Source: a virus | Taxonomy: Duplodnaviria > Caudoviricetes | Length of the DNA stretch: 64,000 nt | Strand: one strand, 5' to 3' | IMG/VR virus record: IMGVR_UViG_3300013426_000019 | Span: 64,001 to 128,000 of that record | In this document: positions 4,601 through 47,675 of the stretch, one piece after another | How the letters are laid out: every line of letters begins with the position of its first letter | Numbering within the stretch: the first letter of the stretch is position 1 | The notes under the pieces: model-generated | Seen by the model: the letters and a program-made list of their open reading frames with translations, nothing else | Told to the model about the DNA's origin: nothing | Databases searched by the model: none | Position numbers and translations under genes: made by a program

Positions 4601-7600
4601 TTCAGTCTTACTGAAGTAAGTTCTCCAATAAGCCCTGAAGAAGATATGCTAGGTGAGTGGGGTAAAGGTGAAGCGGTAGCACATGCCTTTGAGGTCAGAT
4701 TCCCAGGAGAATGGTACGATGCCCACACAGAGGGTCAGCCTGAAGTAGTTAAGGTAGATAGGTTTGTTGCCTTGCAGAAGTGGGTAGTATCTACAGATCC
4801 TAATAAAGTAACAAATGAGAAGTTAGAGAAGCCAGTAACTTACGCGGGCACAACTTACGACGTAGATAACGAAGCCTATAGATTAGCTAAGTTCAAGAAT
4901 GAGTTAGGCTTATACTTCGATATTGAAGATACCTTGTTCTATTATATATACACAGAGTTGTTCCTGATGATTGACTCTCGTGTCAAGAACTCATTCCCAA
5001 CATACTACTCAATCAATCATGATGTTCAGGCCTTTGAAGCTACCACAGGAGAACCTCTATATGAGGAATGTGGTAAGAAGGATGTAATTGAAGAAGGTAA
5101 GTCCTACTTCAAATACACAGAGTCAGAAGACGGCAATGTAACATATGAGCCATTTGAAGGCAATATAGGAGATAGCGCAGTAGACAGCGATGGTAACAAG
5201 CTCTACACTTATATGATGACTCAAGCGGAGACTCTGGATAAGAATGGTTGGCCACTAGGTAGATGGTGTTGGTTGCCGTATGATATGGATACTGGTATAG
5301 GTATCAATAACGAAGGATTACTTGTCTTCGATTACAGCTTAGAAGATACTGAAGCCTTAATAGGTGATAGAGTAGTCAAGATAGGAACACCAGGCAGTGA
5401 AGATGGCGTACCTGTATTCAATGGTGCATCCTCGGTACTGTGGAATAATGTCAGGAAGTGCTTCTCAAGTGAGATAGCCGATAGATATGTAACACTGCGA
5501 GGCGGTGCTATGTTCAATTATGACACTATTGAGAAGAGATACGAAGATCACCAGTATATGTGGCCTGCAGCAATCTTCAACGAAGATGCATATTATAAGT
5601 ATATCCTACCACTCCTAACAACAGGTGAAGACAGATTAGGTATGTGCTTAGGATCTAAAGAGCAACAGCGCAAGTGGTGGATGTTCAATAGATTCAGGTT
5701 CTTGGATAGTAAGTACGTAGCAGGCGATGCAGTCAACAGTAGAATCAGCTTCAGAGTTAACGACTTAGCAGGAGACAAGACAATCAGAATCACACCTTAC
5801 ATAGACCTCTACGTTAAGGTTAAGCAAGGTGAGGCCTGGGAATCTACCCCTACTAAGGTATACAGAAACAAAGAGTTACCCGTATATATCAACGTACCAG
5901 AAGCAGGAGACACTGAAGCCTACATATACTCAGCTGATCAGATTAAGGAGATCAAGGGTCTTAACCAGAGCCTACATATAAGTACACTGGATATCTCTAA
6001 GGCAGTTAACCTACAACATCTAGACGTGTCCTCTACAGATAGTGTTAAGGGTAATACAACACTAGCACAGCTAGCAGTGGGAGCTAATACACTACTTAGA
6101 AGTATAGATGCCCGCAATTGCAGAGTATTAGGGGATATATCTCAGAAATACTTCACAACAGTAGTAGACTTATCTCAGTGTGAACAATTAGAAGAGGCCT
6201 ACTTCAATGGTACTAAGTTAGCAACAGTTATGTTACCTGAAGGAGGCAGACTTAGAACAGTATATCTACCATCCTCGATAACAACACTCAACATTGAGAA
6301 CCAGGGTAAGATCAAAGATATACAGATCCTAGACTTTGATGGTAATTGGGATACATCTAACATTGAGACTCTTATTATAGACAACGTCAATACTGAGGTG
6401 CAGTTAATAGCCCTAGATATTATACATACTCTAAAGTCAGGCAGCTTTGTTAAGTTCAGAGGGTTCGATATAACCTTAGACTCTAAAGATAAGTTCACAG
6501 AGTTCATAGATAAGTTGTTTGAGTTGAGAGGTGAAGGTGGTACAGATGTTAATGTTGCAAATATCCAGGGTACAATACATCTCAAGACAACTGAAGTAAT
6601 TGACTATGCTTACTACAAGAGAACAATAGATAGATTCAAGGACCTTATAATAGATGCAGAAGTAGCTAAGACAGTGCAGTTCTACAACTACGACGGCACA
6701 GTTAAGCTAGATACTCAGGTATCAACAGATAACTCAGCTGCTACAGGAAGAGTAGAGTACAAAGGTGAAGCACCAACCAAGCCAGATACAGTTAAAATAC
6801 ACTATGTCTTCGACGGCTGGACCTTAACTCCAGGTGGTGCCTTGGAGGAAGATATCCTAGATAATATAACAGGAGATCTTATAGTATATGCTCACTTCAA
6901 GGAGATCCCAATATATTATGTCAACTTCTACAACTATGATGGTACAGTTAAATACCACACAGGTTACACTTATGATGTGGGAGATGTTGAATATAAAGGA
7001 GATAAACCTGCGTATAACGATGAGAAGTTTGGAACAGTAGAGTTTATGGGCTGGGGCACTGTAAAGTATGGTAGTGCAAATCTAATCTATGAATCTGGCA
7101 AGATTAGAGGCGTAGATAGAGACATCGAAGCTTATGCCATAATGAACTGGCCAATTATATCGTTTGAGGTAACCAAGAACCCCGACAGGCTTAACTATTG
7201 GCCTCGCAAAGAGGAGAATGGCGAGGTACTATATGAAGGTGACTACATAGACTTAGAAGGCATAGAGGTAACATCTGTTAAGTCAACTCCTAGTGGTAAT
7301 CAAGAAGCTCAACTATTGTCTTACGATTATGAGCCTAAAACAAGACTTACCACGGATAATCACACCATTACAATATCTACTAGAGGTAGAATAGAGGGTG
7401 CTGACACAACAATAGAGAGAACTCTCAATATTGGCCTAGCAGTAAGCAGCAGACTCATGAGGGAGGCTGACAGATCCGTGTTCTTCTTAGAGGATGATTG
7501 GGATCCAGAAGGCATGGAGGTTGAATATACCTTCGATAACAGTGAGACTGAGTTAGTCCACATACCTGCTAAGACTGAAGGAGTATGCAGTTGGGTACCT

Positions 7601-31341: not shown

Positions 31342-31356
31342 GGTTATATTATAGAT

Positions 31357-41059: not shown

Positions 41060-41127
41060 AAATAATAGTAGAAATCCCCTCAAATAAGAGGGGAATATTA
41101 TTGCTCAGGGGTTATATTATATACAAT

Positions 41128-42627
41128 ATGAATATATATGAAACATCCCAAGCAACAATAAAAACTGTTGCACCAGAAGTATCAGCTATTATAGATCAAG
41201 AATTACAAGATCAACGCAACTATCTTAAAATGATAGCAAGTGAAAACTACTGCTCTGCTGCTGTTATGGCTGCTCAGAGTTCAATCCTAACAGATATATA
41301 CTCAGAAGGCTATCCTGAACATAGATATTATGCAGGCTGTGAGAACATAGATAAACTAGAGGAATTAGGTCAGCAATATGCCTGTGAGTTGTTTGGAGCT
41401 GAACATGCATATCTACAGCCCTCAACAGGCAGTGATTGCAACTTAGCAGCTTATTGGGCAATCTTAAAGGCCAAAATTATTGATCCTATGTTTAAATACA
41501 TACAGGAACAATACAGCCCGTTCTCTTACTCAGCTCAAGGAATTAAGTACGAAGAAAATGAGGCTCCACGAACCTTAAGTGACTTAACAAAATCTCAGTG
41601 GGATACAATAAGGCGTGCATGTCATAGTCAAAAACTTCTGGCAATGGATTATAGTTGTGGGGGACACCTAACACATGGTTATAGGCAGAATATATCAGCA
41701 CAGATGTTTGACGTATATCAATACGGAGTAACAACAGATAGAGAAAGCCCTAACTATGGTCTAATAGATTATGAGGCCTTAGAAGCAGAGGCGATGAGAA
41801 TCAAACCTCTAATCCTCTTAGCAGGTTACTCAGCCTATCCCCGCAAGCTCAACTTCAAGAAGTTTAGGGACATAGCAGATAAGTGTGGGGCCGTCTTAAT
41901 GGTAGATATGAGTCACTTTGCAGGGCTAGTAGCTGGTAAGGTGTATGAAGGAGAATATAATCCTGTACCTTATGCTGACATAGTAACTACAACAACCCAT
42001 AAAACCTTCAGGGGTCCTAGAGGGGCCATGATACTATGCAAGAGATGGCTAGCTGAATATGTAGACAGTTCATGTCCAACCTGTATGGGAGGACAACTAC
42101 CACAAATACTTGCAGCTAAAGTAGTAGCGCTTAAGGAGGCCATGTCAGAAGATTACAAAGACTATGCCAAACAAATAATCCTGAACTCCAAAGCACTAGC
42201 CAAATCACTTATAAATAATGGCATTAAAGTATGTACAGGAGGCTCTGATAATCATATAGTACTTATAGATGTAAGCCCTCTGAACTTAAATGGTAGGCAA
42301 GCTGAAAATATCTTAAGAGAGTGTCACATAACAGTTAATCGTAATGCTCTACCCAATGATCCTAATGGCCCTTGGTATACTAGTGGTATTAGATTAGGTA
42401 CGGCTGCTCTGACAACCTTAGGGATGAAAGAAGCTCAAATGATGGAGATAGGAGAGTACATAGCTAATATCTTAAAAAATGCTCAACCTTATACTATGAA
42501 AAGTGGAAATAAAAGTAAAGTAAAGGTTATATTAAATATAGATACAAAGGAAGATATAACAAGTAAGGTTGTGGAACTTATAAGAGAGTATCCTGCCTAT
42601 AAGGAGCTAAGTAGCTATGAGCAATGA
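41128..42627 (+). CDS. glyA: Serine hydroxymethyltransferase (long type)
   Basis: MIASEN, YSEGYP.HRYYAGCE, GGHLTHG, DMSHFAGLVA, TTTTHKTFRGPRG, SGIRLGT; start moved to the first ATG after the promoter motif. Confidence 0.97.
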   Translation: MNIYETSQATIKTVAPEVSAIIDQELQDQRNYLKMIASENYCSAAVMAAQSSILTDIYSEGYPEHRYYAGCENIDKLEELGQQYACELFGAEHAYLQPSTGSDCNLAAYWAILKAKIIDPMFKYIQEQYSPFSYSAQGIKYEENEAPRTLSDLTKSQWDTIRRACHSQKLLAMDYSCGGHLTHGYRQNISAQMFDVYQYGVTTDRESPNYGLIDYEALEAEAMRIKPLILLAGYSAYPRKLNFKKFRDIADKCGAVLMVDMSHFAGLVAGKVYEGEYNPVPYADIVTTTTHKTFRGPRGAMILCKRWLAEYVDSSCPTCMGGQLPQILAAKVVALKEAMSEDYKDYAKQIILNSKALAKSLINNGIKVCTGGSDNHIVLIDVSPLNLNGRQAENILRECHITVNRNALPNDPNGPWYTSGIRLGTAALTTLGMKEAQMMEIGEYIANILKNAQPYTMKSGNKSKVKVILNIDTKEDITSKVVELIREYPAYKELSSYEQ

Positions 42628-42988
42628 GAATATCTTAGGCATTACCTTAAGGAATGGTTATGCACTATACTACAATAATAACTTCGATAGGCTTAGGTCT
42701 GAGACTATTAAAGAAACCTTAATAGATGCTAAGTGGAAGTATAGTGAGGAAGATAACACAATAGTACTTAAAAAGAAAGATATAATCTTAGAGTTAAGCT
42801 CGACAGGTGTTAGGGCTTATATAGGTAAAATGTGGGAATCACATCGCAAGTATTGGAGAGTAGAAATCAACCTTACAAACTATGAAGATGTCGAGATAGA
42901 TAAAGATAAGGGAACCTTAGAGTTCCTAGGTGAAAGTAGTGAAACACAAACAGGAAGATGCATTATAGCAATTATATATTACAAGTAG
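42617..42988 (+). CDS. Hypothetical protein
   Basis: 123 aa, overlaps the glyA stop, AAGGAG RBS. Confidence 0.7.
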   Translation: MSNENILGITLRNGYALYYNNNFDRLRSETIKETLIDAKWKYSEEDNTIVLKKKDIILELSSTGVRAYIGKMWESHRKYWRVEINLTNYEDVEIDKDKGTLEFLGESSETQTGRCIIAIIYYK

Positions 42989-43012
42989 AGTGTGTTGTAC
43001 TAAATAAACAGT

Positions 43013-43087
43013 GAGAGGGTCATCCAAATAGGATAGGAGCTCCTACTATGTGAGTAGAGAATGTGGGTTCAAACCCCGCCCCCCTTA
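43013..43087 (+). tRNA. tRNA-like element / pseudo-tRNA, anticodon not assignable
   Basis: Acceptor GAGAGGG/CCCCCTT (one mismatch); T-arm GTGGG-TTCAAAC-CCCGC; D-arm with GG; irregular anticodon arm CTAC-TATGTGA-GTAG lacking U33. Confidence 0.6.
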
Positions 43088-43110
43088 ATGCCTCCCATGT
43101 CAACGGCAAA

Positions 43111-43210
43111 TTGGGTATAGACAGCAAAAATTATTCTGGAAACTTAGACATAGACAAATCTAAGAGAAGATAGGCCCTAGTTGGTCTATCAAACACAAAA
43201 ACGTACCCAG
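43111..43210 (+). ncRNA. Candidate structured ncRNA (Y-RNA-like)
   Basis: Closing stem TTGGGTAT/GTACCCAG; internal hairpins CTTAGA/TCTAAG and GATAGGCC/GGTCTATC; own terminator; directly upstream of a TROVE-like gene. Confidence 0.6.
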
Positions 43211-43218
43211 TCTTATTT

Positions 43219-43252
43219 GAGAGTTAGGTTATCCCTAACTCTCTTCTTGTTT
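43219..43252 (+). terminator. Intrinsic terminator
   Basis: GAGAGTTAGG-TTATC-CCTAACTCTC followed by TTCTTGTTT. Confidence 0.8.
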
Positions 43253-43299
43253 AAGAATCCACCAAGTTCTGGTTATATTATATATAAGGAGCCAACACA

Positions 43300-44829
43300 A
43301 TGTCTAAACTAATAGAAGCAGCTTCAAATTATACAACTACTGAAAATGGTGCTAAAACATACAAATCTACTACAGATAAAATACTAGACCTCTTCGCTAT
43401 GGGGGGTGCTCTAAGGAATGCAGATAGTACAAGGATTGTAGAGATGGTAACAAAGGCCTACAAGAAGGATCCTATTAAAACTCTACAAGTACTACTATAC
43501 TTAAGAGATATTAGACAAGGACAAGGAGAGAAGAGGGTATATAGAGAAGCTCTTAAAGAGATCTTAAGGCCCTATATACCAACTAAAGGGGATATACCTC
43601 GCAAACACAGAGCCATACTTGAAAAAGTGTATAATACAACTATAGAGTTAGGCAGCTGGAAAGATATAACAGATACCTTGCCTGTAAATGCCTATGCCTT
43701 CTATGTTAAGAAGCATATGAGAGATGAGAACTCCCTAATGTTCAAATGGTTACCCTCTATATCAGGTCCAAGAAATAGCAAAGCCGAAAGCTTAGCCAAG
43801 TACTTAGGAATGACTCCTAAACAATATAGAAAATGGCTATCCTCTAAGAGAGCCGAACTTAAGTTAGTAGAAACCTCTCTGTGCAAGAAAGAGTGGGATA
43901 AGATTGAATATGATAAGATACCATCACAAGCTAGTCTTAGGTACCGAGAAACCTTTGAGAGACATGATGGGCGTAGGTACAAAGAATATCTGTGCAAGGT
44001 TAAAAATAACCTCAAAGAGGTTAAAATCAATACCTCTACACTATCACCCAGCCAGGTAGTTAAGGAGTGCCTAAATCTAAATTATGAGGACGAAGCCTTA
44101 GAGGTATTGTGGTCTAATCTACCCAACTATAAGAACAAGGATAATGCGTTGGTTATAGCAGATACTTCAGGATCCATGTATGATAATAGCCAGGGTCCTC
44201 TATCAATAGCGCTAAGCTTAGCCCTATACTTTGCGGAACATAATACAGGTATCTTCAAGGATGAGTTCATCACGTTCTCAGAGTGGCCAGAGTTCTTGAA
44301 AGTAGATAGATCAAAATCACTATATGAAAGACTTACAATAGCTAAAGATGCTAATTGGGGTATGAATACAAACTTCAAGGCTGTGTTCGATATGATCCTA
44401 AAAACAGCTATAGAATATAATATCCCAGAAGAAGAGATGCCTAAGACCCTATACTGTGTAAGTGATATGGAGTTCGATGAAGCAACTATGGTAAAGGAGA
44501 GTACCAACTTTGAAGCTATCACCAAAGCATATACTAGAGTGGGGTATTGCATGCCTAAAATAGTGTTCTGGAATGTAAACTCACGTCAAAACAATGTCCC
44601 TGTTAAATACAATGATAAAGGTGTGGCACTAGTATCAGGGAGTTCGCCATCAGTGTTCAGCATGGTAGTGAGTGGTGACTTAGATCCTATTAAGTTCATG
44701 GAATCTGCTATCAATAAACCCCGCTACCTAAATCCTGCTATGGAAATAGTAGCCGAAATTAAAAAGGCTAAGCAACGCCCTAAGAGAAAGGCTAAAAAAT
44801 TAAAGAGAACCCGGATTGACAGGAAGTAA
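43300..44829 (+). CDS. DUF2828-family TROVE/Ro60-like protein with C-terminal vWA domain
   Basis: TENGA..Y.ST...LDLF, LRDIRQGQGEKR, GSWKD, KWLPS, DTSGSM (MIDAS), WGMNTNF, VSDMEFD, IVFWNV, ALVSG.SP. Confidence 0.9.
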   Translation: MSKLIEAASNYTTTENGAKTYKSTTDKILDLFAMGGALRNADSTRIVEMVTKAYKKDPIKTLQVLLYLRDIRQGQGEKRVYREALKEILRPYIPTKGDIPRKHRAILEKVYNTTIELGSWKDITDTLPVNAYAFYVKKHMRDENSLMFKWLPSISGPRNSKAESLAKYLGMTPKQYRKWLSSKRAELKLVETSLCKKEWDKIEYDKIPSQASLRYRETFERHDGRRYKEYLCKVKNNLKEVKINTSTLSPSQVVKECLNLNYEDEALEVLWSNLPNYKNKDNALVIADTSGSMYDNSQGPLSIALSLALYFAEHNTGIFKDEFITFSEWPEFLKVDRSKSLYERLTIAKDANWGMNTNFKAVFDMILKTAIEYNIPEEEMPKTLYCVSDMEFDEATMVKESTNFEAITKAYTRVGYCMPKIVFWNVNSRQNNVPVKYNDKGVALVSGSSPSVFSMVVSGDLDPIKFMESAINKPRYLNPAMEIVAEIKKAKQRPKRKAKKLKRTRIDRK

Positions 44830-46580: not shown

Positions 46581-47675
46581 ATGAAGATTGTTGAATCTAA
46601 AAATACGAACTTGTATAAGTATGAAGTAGCAGAAGACTCTAACTACAAGATCTTTGAGAGTGATAAAGCCCACTACGTCTTCGATAAGAAGACGGGGGTA
46701 ATGATGAGTTGGGGAGAGACTATGACAGACGATCCTCAGGAGTTCCCTGTACCTACTATCCTAGATTTAGAGGTATCTACTAAGTGTAATAAGCCAGTAC
46801 CTTGTAAGTTCTGCTACAAGAGCAATACACATAATGGGGATATAATGTCTCTAGACACCTTCAAGAAGATTATAGATACTATGAGTAGAGGCCTAACTCA
46901 AGTAGCACTAGGTTCGGGTTACTATGGTATAGAGAATCCTTATATCTTCGATATGATGGATTATGCTCGACTTAAAGGAATTATACCTAATATAACAGTT
47001 GGATGTGTTAGAGAAGACTTGGCTGACGACTATGCTAAAAGAGTAGGGGCAATTGCAATCAGTCGCTACGAGGACTCTGTAAACGATTGCTATAACTCTG
47101 TTAAAAGAATGACAGATAGAGGAATAACACAAACCAACATACATTATATGATCTGTGAAGAAACCTATAAGGGAGCTCTGCAAACATTAGAAGATGCCAA
47201 AACGGATCCTCGTCTTAAAAAGTTAAATGCAATAGTCTTCTTGTCTCTAAAAACTAAAGGAAGAGGCAATAGAGGGTTCACACCTCTAAGTCAAGATAAG
47301 TTCGATAATCTAGTAAATAAGGCAAAGGAATATAATATTGGTATAGGCTTCGACTCTTGCTCATCACTTAAGGCGTTCAAGGCTTATAAAGGAGATGCAA
47401 GTGTATCTAAATTGATTGAACCTTGTGAGTCAGGAAGTATAAGCTCCTATATAAATGTAAAAGGGATATATTATCCCTGCTCGTTCGCCGAAGGAACTAA
47501 AACAAATAATCTAAATTGGTCTGAAGGTATAGATGTACTGAGCTGTAAAGATACCAATGAGTTCTTGACTAAGGTGTGGTATAATAAAAAAACCAAGGAG
47601 TTCAGGAAGGCCTTGCGGGAATCTAGAAAGTGCAATGAATATGATTGTAGAGAGTGTCCTCTCTATAATGTGTAG
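46581..47675 (+). CDS. Radical SAM protein with atypical Cx5Cx2C motif
   Basis: CNKPVPCKFCY; PCESG..YINVKG.YYPCSF; C-terminal CRECPLY. Confidence 0.85.
   Translation: MKIVESKNTNLYKYEVAEDSNYKIFESDKAHYVFDKKTGVMMSWGETMTDDPQEFPVPTILDLEVSTKCNKPVPCKFCYKSNTHNGDIMSLDTFKKIIDTMSRGLTQVALGSGYYGIENPYIFDMMDYARLKGIIPNITVGCVREDLADDYAKRVGAIAISRYEDSVNDCYNSVKRMTDRGITQTNIHYMICEETYKGALQTLEDAKTDPRLKKLNAIVFLSLKTKGRGNRGFTPLSQDKFDNLVNKAKEYNIGIGFDSCSSLKAFKAYKGDASVSKLIEPCESGSISSYINVKGIYYPCSFAEGTKTNNLNWSEGIDVLSCKDTNEFLTKVWYNKKTKEFRKALRESRKCNEYDCRECPLYNV

Follow-up and report, generated by a model that had tools for sequence, protein, structure and literature searches.

Ro60 proteins (Rsr, TROVE2) and their Y RNAs, which include the YrlA and YrlB RNAs of bacteria and mycobacteriophages (Rfam RF02553), make up the known system closest to the locus described here. 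Ro60 combines a ring of helical repeats with a von Willebrand factor A (vWA) domain that carries a MIDAS motif (metal-ion-dependent adhesion site), and the conserved stem of its Y RNAs binds the outer face of the protein. More than 250 bacteria and phages carry YrlA beside a gene annotated as TROVE (Chen et al. 2014, PMC4201824). The Ro60 of Thermus phage phiLo is accompanied by Yrl1 and Yrl2, and the study of this phage describes a stem-bulge-stem RNA with a CGAA motif (PMC12135203). We analyzed a 64,000-nucleotide stretch of viral DNA (the window), bases 64001-128000 of a 158,768-bp IMG/VR virus record with an estimated completeness of 74%, in which a tRNA-like element, a 100-nt RNA with paired ends and a DUF2828 gene follow one another on the + strand. 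We estimate a probability of about 70% that this locus encodes a ribonucleoprotein of the Ro60/Y-RNA type assembled from divergent parts, including a new class of partner RNA. Three direct observations carry this reading: the fold of the protein, an RNA family with a covarying stem, and the tight, strand-specific linkage of that family to the gene.

The DUF2828 gene encodes a 509-aa protein with matches to Pfam families PF11443 (DUF2828, 1e-31) and PF25043 (DUF7788, 8e-51) and to PHROG 850, named 'RNA-binding protein' (1e-129). In a Foldseek search with an AlphaFold model built from 33 homologs (mean predicted local distance difference test score 85.7), the top ten chains were all Ro60, from Xenopus, human, Deinococcus (Rsr) and Thermus phage phiLo, with E values of 1e-8 to 5e-7. 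Ro60 chains align over residues 7-462 of the model (Z 17.6-19.7), and VIA re-alignment to 2i91_A gave a Z of 19.7 and a root-mean-square deviation of 4.3 Å over 401 aligned residues, while the best non-Ro match was to the vWA domain alone (Z 9.8). All five MIDAS residues (DxSxS...T...D: D288, S290, S292, T357 and D389) are invariant in the 33 homologs. An initial annotation, made from the letters of the DNA and a list of open reading frames (ORFs), had called the gene TROVE-like with a vWA MIDAS motif, and the structural match bears this out over the full length of the protein. Based on the model, we predict that the protein is a Ro60 fold of ring and vWA domain that is not a TROVE member at the level of sequence; a PDB sequence search with the family profile returned a weak vWA match only. 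The DUF2828/DUF7788 family is very large, with more than 1,800 clusters at E<=1e-10, and cultured phages contribute 710 records with a homolog, among them those of Felixounaviruses, mycobacteriophages, KVP40, and Listeria and Staphylococcus phages; GenBank annotates some of these homologs as 'Ro-like RNA binding protein'.

Upstream of this gene, on the same strand and ending 90 nt before the start codon, lies the 100-nt RNA (43111-43210), in which TTGGGTAT pairs with GTACCCAG beside an unpaired ACAGCAA. The fold (minimum free energy -25.2 kcal/mol, z -3.15) reproduces the paired ends and the two enclosed hairpins that had been described from the letters. The first hairpin (43143-43164) has a 6-bp stem and a 10-nt loop and the second (43169-43190) an 8-bp stem and a 6-nt loop; neither is a canonical mimic of a 7-nt anticodon loop. 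The 10-bp terminator proposed to follow the RNA was likewise recovered, and it is predicted to end the RNA's transcription unit. Between terminator and gene stands the sequence GTTATATTATATA. We found (G)GTTATATTATATA on the + strand at window positions 31343, 33607, 41111, 43272, 44837 and 46322, and also at genome position 58749, about 15-40 nt before gene starts, and it is probably the phage's own promoter consensus. Since the motif recurs before + strand genes and is followed here by AAGGAG and ATG, the Ro-like gene appears to be promoted separately, in agreement with the initial annotation.

We compared the window with loci around other DUF2828 homologs, numbered L003, L084 and so on; the protein is 94% identical to that of the window in L003, 87% in L084, 56% in L085 and 54% in L109. 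L003 and L084 have the same intergenic region as the window, and it is more conserved than the end of the upstream ORF. Within the RNA, substitutions and length changes in the segment between the two halves of the closing structure (the cargo) are confined to loops, and a U.G pair of the closing stem is replaced by C-G, which strengthens the pairing. In L085 and L109, two RNAs with ACAGCAA and a stem (GGGTGC/GCACCC and variants) are interspersed among tRNA-like elements and a tRNA-Gln. Stem and ACAGCAA were found upstream of homologs with 94, 87, 56, 54 and 35% protein identity, with compensatory changes in the stem.

These RNAs belong to a family that we define by its handle: a stem of 7-8 bp with free, covarying sequence, a linker of 2-3 nt, CAGCAA, variable cargo, an A-rich run and a 3' arm ending in G. 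With a descriptor of this arrangement (7-bp stem, 1-5 nt, CAGCAA, 20-260 nt, 3' arm), we searched 80 viral loci oriented with the DUF2828 gene on the + strand and obtained 303 matches on the gene's strand compared to 48 on the opposite strand and 27 after shuffling. An alignment of 47 short members shows CAGCAA without variation; the 3'-terminal G is conserved to at least 90%, as is the C that precedes it by three columns. The initial annotation had suggested looking for covariation of the stem and ACAGCAA upstream of DUF2828 homologs; seven stem pairs covary, with two to four pair types each, in these 47 members, which were pre-selected by a pairing filter, and the strand and shuffle controls therefore carry the weight. 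At E<=0.01, the covariance model R1 gave 149 matches in 85 viral loci, all on the gene's strand. The model also matched 119 times in a separate set of 80 loci of cellular (bacterial and archaeal) assemblies, here too exclusively on the strand of the gene. With the handle next to the gene in 76 of 80 viral loci (descriptor, gene's strand) and 66 of 80 cellular-assembly loci (R1), and with no Rfam match, a distinct class of partner RNA for DUF2828 proteins, as had been suggested, is supported. An exact pattern scan of IMG/VR returned 20 stretches, of which 17 were chance matches in coding sequence and one, L102, was the contig of L003; L091 and L095 were the only new module loci. In two IMG/VR contigs from the pattern scan the motif stands upstream of 35%-identical homologs, in one of them with a T arm inside the loop.

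Handle modules lie close to the gene and on either side of it. A module was found within 300 nt of one or the other gene end in 58 of 80 loci, and of 135 upstream R1 matches 71 are no more than 250 nt away from the start codon; modules can be found downstream of the gene as well, and their number reaches 11. A sole significant R1 match was obtained in each of two bacterial genomes (3.6 and 5.1 Mb), where it adjoins the DUF2828 gene. In Mycobacterium phage Jobypre (75.6 kb), the only two R1 matches directly follow the 'Ro-like RNA binding protein' gene and fill an unannotated gap of 380 nt (L116:4447-4499 and 4649-4705, corresponding to PV251868.1 42300-42352 and 42502-42558). R1 matches are also present in Salmonella phage Si3 and Vibrio phage KVP40. 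By contrast, five tRNA-rich phages that lack DUF2828 (T4, T5, Bxz1, phiCbK and CcrColossus), two of which carry a canonical TROVE Ro60, gave no R1 match. The module therefore tracks DUF2828, and neither tRNA arrays nor canonical Ro60.

The handle also exists in a circularly permuted form, in which a capped hairpin is followed by NNN and CAGCAA (70 matches on the gene's strand against 4 on the opposite strand and 3 in shuffles). Often this form takes the place of the anticodon arm in a tRNA-like body of 113-133 nt; these bodies score as tRNA with Rfam but are not called by ARAGORN. Such tRNA bodies were seen at L043:2030-2382, L016:4317-4811, L057:1525-2178 and L060:1917-2039, among others, and some have sub-threshold YrlA scores (36.9 bits in L066). 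Across the family the cargo often resembles parts of the tRNAs of phage arrays: in 81 of 191 distinct cargos there is an anticodon-arm-like hairpin (7-nt loop; U at position 2, purine at position 6), compared to 19.7 +/- 4.0 in shuffles, and a further 27 contain T-loop-like motifs.

Set beside the Y RNAs, the window RNA has in common with them its paired 5' and 3' ends and its place next to a Ro gene, and both RNA families include tRNA-like domains and often several paralogs per genome. The differences lie in the parts. The protein belongs to PF11443/PF25043 instead of TROVE, the bulged helix with CGAA of Y RNAs is replaced by CAGCAA and a stem of free sequence, and the tRNA-like body of YrlA is, in the window, a separate neighbouring element. 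Two canonical TROVE Ro60 phages that we examined have no CAGCAA module. The YrlA model RF02553 has no match at E<=10 anywhere in the record; in other loci it gives sub-threshold matches (22.8-36.9 bits, threshold 69 bits) on the tRNA-embedded forms. The Rfam scan proposed by the initial annotation yielded no match in the window at the gathering threshold, and at E<=10 the region 42900-43350 gave nothing except a weak tRNA match, so that no Rfam family matches the 100-nt RNA. A DNA search of cultured phages returned only a 145-nt, 70% match in Campylobacter phage homologs. Neither literature searches nor Rfam turned up a paper or RNA catalogue that describes the pairing of handle RNAs with DUF2828 proteins.

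Several points weigh against a Ro60/Y-RNA-type particle. Pfam finds no TROVE domain (PF05731) in the protein even at E<=10, where it returns only DUF7788, DUF2828 and three weak unrelated families, and homology to Ro60 is therefore structural only. The Ro-binding motif of Y RNAs, CGAA or GGUCCGA, is absent from 43111-43210, as the initial annotation had observed for the canonical helix. The window RNA is the sole R1 match in the window and the best in the record, with a score of only 17.1 bits (E 0.11-0.28). In KVP40 about 7 kb separate the sole R1 match (AY283928.2 176664-176723, - strand) from the DUF2828 gene, which has the same orientation, and linkage is therefore not absolute: RNA and gene can be unlinked. 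The pairing filter behind the covariation count counts on this side as well. The low R1 score is explained by a 44-nt insertion in the cargo and by G.U closing pairs, and membership of the window RNA in the family therefore rests on its defining features, on synteny and position, and on the scores of its close relatives. The RNA has every defining feature, with a DUF2828 gene nearby on the same strand, its orthologs score 26.2 bits in L003, 44.1 bits in L085, and 32 and 28.8 bits in L109, and its specific stem is common to L085 and L109. The record holds no second convincing module.

Because a conserved handle sits beside this gene in phages and bacteria alike, the 100-nt RNA is most likely the partner of the Ro-like protein. 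By analogy with the Y RNA stem, we predict that the handle, made up of the closing stem, the unpaired ACAGCAA of one strand and the A-rich run of the opposite one, is the protein-binding site and would dock on the protein ring. The variable cargo and the tRNA-shaped RNA upstream would then set what the particle meets, be it enzymes that handle tRNA, nucleases, or substrates that resemble tRNA. The tRNA-like element and the handle RNA would probably be made as one short transcript ending at the terminator and then probably be cut apart by host tRNA-processing enzymes, with the protein gene transcribed from its own promoter. Judging from the cargo, a role against tRNA-cleaving host defences is plausible. 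The initial annotation had also raised an RNA-repair scaffold, which found no support: we detected neither RtcB nor an Rnl2-type RNA ligase in the 74%-complete record, and since this weakens a repair role we dropped that version for this phage.

The degenerate tRNA reported ahead of the RNA is present and folds as a cloverleaf. Its acceptor stem has 7 bp with one A.C mismatch, its D stem 3 bp with GG in the loop, and its T arm is canonical (GTGGG TTCAAAC CCCGC); the discriminator is A and CCA is not encoded. The acceptor, D and T arms are features shared with phage-array tRNAs. The difference lies in the anticodon arm, which is replaced by a hairpin with a 5-nt loop, in an Rfam score below threshold and in the lack of an ARAGORN call. 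ARAGORN, run on the window and on the whole 158.8-kb record and also with relaxed settings, called no tRNA or tmRNA gene in either. Lacking a 7-nt anticodon loop, an Rfam score above threshold and an ARAGORN call, the element cannot decode. Together with a real tRNA-Gln that occupies the same spot in relatives, the low score, the acceptor mismatch and the missing anticodon loop would fit a functionless pseudogene decaying after the loss of a tRNA array, in which case the handle RNA alone would matter. We regard this as unlikely, as 95% of the cloverleaf cells pair across the window, L003 and L084, the D, anticodon-like and T stems each show a single compensatory double change, and conservation is higher in the intergenic region than at the end of the upstream ORF. 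In L003 and L084 the A.C of the acceptor stem becomes A-U, strengthening the pairing, and the L084 ortholog reaches 33.3 bits with Rfam tRNA (threshold 29).

Table 1. Layout of the Ro-like locus, in window coordinates.
Positions	Strand	Feature	Basis or remark
43013-43087	+	tRNA-like RNA	Rfam tRNA (RF00005) 24.0 bits, E 0.01; gathering score 29 bits
43088-43110	+	Spacer, 23 nt	Hardly varies in L003 and L084; free of terminator and promoter motifs
43111-43127	+	5' half of handle: stem arm TTGGGTAT (43111-43118), linker AGA, unpaired CAGCAA (43122-43127)	Aligns to model R1 positions 1-17
43128-43190	+	Variable cargo with two hairpins	Folding; stems conserved in L003 and L084
43191-43210	+	3' half of handle: A-rich run AAACACAAAAAC, then stem arm GTACCCAG (43203-43210) ending in the conserved G of the family	Fold and R1 alignment
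43219-43252	+	Predicted intrinsic terminator: 10-bp stem (43219-43243), 5-nt loop, T-rich tail	Terminator scan; kept in L003 and L084 with loop changes only
43272-43291	+	Phage promoter-like motif GTTATATTATATA (43272), then ribosome-binding site AAGGAG, then ATG 43300	Motif recurs at least 7 times upstream of + strand genes
43300-44829	+	Ro60-like protein, 509 aa: helical-repeat ring domain (DUF2828) and vWA domain (DUF7788) with complete MIDAS	Pfam, PHROG, structure model

Other readings leave the RNA family in place and deny it the role of a separate partner of the protein. The stem-CAGCAA structure could act in cis, as a leader of the DUF2828 mRNA or an operator for its autoregulation, and the clustering of modules within 250 nt upstream of the start codon might suggest such a role. 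We find this highly improbable and rejected it as the main explanation: in the window a strong terminator and a separate promoter motif stand between RNA and gene, and elsewhere modules are found downstream of the gene, in up to 11 copies, within tRNA-like scaffolds, and 7 kb away in KVP40. Of similarly small probability is a trans-acting, base-pairing RNA whose invariant ACAGCAA would be a seed against a conserved cellular RNA, with the Ro-like protein at most a chaperone or unrelated. The motif is indeed single-stranded, and it does not vary between hosts as diverse as Mycobacterium, Salmonella and Clostridia. However, no target is known, the RNA co-occurs tightly with the gene, and besides the motif the RNAs require the covarying stem, the A-rich strand and the conserved 3' G, a combination that fits a protein site better than a seed.

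Slightly less probable still is the possibility that the elements punctuate the transcripts of phage tRNA arrays or signal their processing, and lie near DUF2828 only because the gene sits in such arrays. ARAGORN scans of 82 viral loci did place the DUF2828 gene among same-strand tRNA genes in more than half of them, and modules are interleaved with tRNAs. Against this, the five tRNA-rich phages without DUF2828 carry no module, the window phage keeps one beside the gene in a record with no ARAGORN-called tRNA, the two modules of Jobypre adjoin the Ro-like gene about 2.7 kb from the sole annotated tRNA of that stretch, and the two bacterial genomes carry the module only at the gene. As the module tracks DUF2828 and not tRNA arrays, we rejected punctuation as the main explanation. 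A chance arrangement was rejected on the recurrence of stem and ACAGCAA, with compensatory changes, upstream of homologs down to 35% identity.

A Ro60/Y-RNA-type particle with its own class of RNA would give the very large DUF2828/DUF7788 family a testable biochemical role and would constitute a second, independent branch of Ro60/Y-RNA biology. Handle RNAs could also account for gaps without annotation and for the 'odd tRNAs' of many phage tRNA clusters, and the tRNA mimicry of their cargo points to a contest between phages and host defences that target tRNA. Cultured systems exist in which these predictions could be pursued, such as phage Jobypre on M. smegmatis.

Outside viruses and bacteria, the handle RNAs resemble the Class I RNAs of dictyostelids (RF01414), which are 42-65 nt long and have a short covarying stem joining their ends, a single-stranded 11-nt motif beside the 5' arm and a variable remainder. 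In that motif T, C, C, A and A are near-invariant at positions 3, 6, 9, 10 and 11 (PMC7919456), and the sole reported direct binder of Class I RNA is the RNA recognition motif protein Rnp1A (Kjellin et al. 2021, PMC7919456). The family consensus beside the 5' arm, nnTAACAGCAA, fits all five near-invariant positions, a comparison of positions made because the full motif appears only in a figure of that paper; in the window RNA position 3 is A. The conserved G is the 5'-most one in Class I RNAs and the 3'-most one in phage modules. The RF01414 model did not match the window RNA (the best score in the record, 13.2 bits against a threshold of 41.5, lies elsewhere) and gave no match at E<=1 in four module-rich loci. 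The likeness offers a candidate protein for a 20-year-old puzzle.

It is tempting to go further and propose that the stem-CAGCAA handle serves every DUF2828 Ro-like ring as its docking site, with anticodon arms, T arms or whole tRNA bodies as exchangeable cargo that would serve as tRNA decoys or adaptors, through which phages would neutralize tRNA-cleaving host defences or steer host tRNA enzymes, and that the same handle recurs in the Class I RNAs of social amoebae. We consider this extended proposal doubtful; if true, the particle would span viruses, bacteria and eukaryotes.

A structured stretch of about 250 nt lies between the tRNA-Gln and the Ro-like gene at L109:2210-2465 (+). Its ends pair like an acceptor stem and it has a 3' T arm and ACCA, and neither ARAGORN nor Rfam gives it a name. 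DUF2828 homologs with 41% identity were found on two contigs binned as Promethearchaeota (Asgard), L122 and L125, the latter with handle RNAs; both may be viral contigs binned with their host.

Ro60 works with exonucleases, and the gene order in some relatives is reminiscent of this. In three relatives with 51-56% identity (L085:4597-5187, L109:4862-5452 and L110:4602-5192), the first or second gene after the Ro-like gene, 0.1-0.7 kb downstream, encodes an RNase_T-type 3'-5' exonuclease, followed in L085 and L109 by an SMC/AAA_23 protein. The exonuclease gene of the window phage lies at genome positions 132078-132611, outside the window and about 24 kb from the Ro-like gene. Among the neighbours within the window, a radical SAM/SPASM-like protein is encoded three genes downstream of the Ro-like gene (46581-47675, +; PHROG 7293, 1.2e-89). 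Two genes upstream is a serine hydroxymethyltransferase gene (41101-42627, +; 508 aa; PF00464, 7.6e-119), whose synteny is kept in L084.

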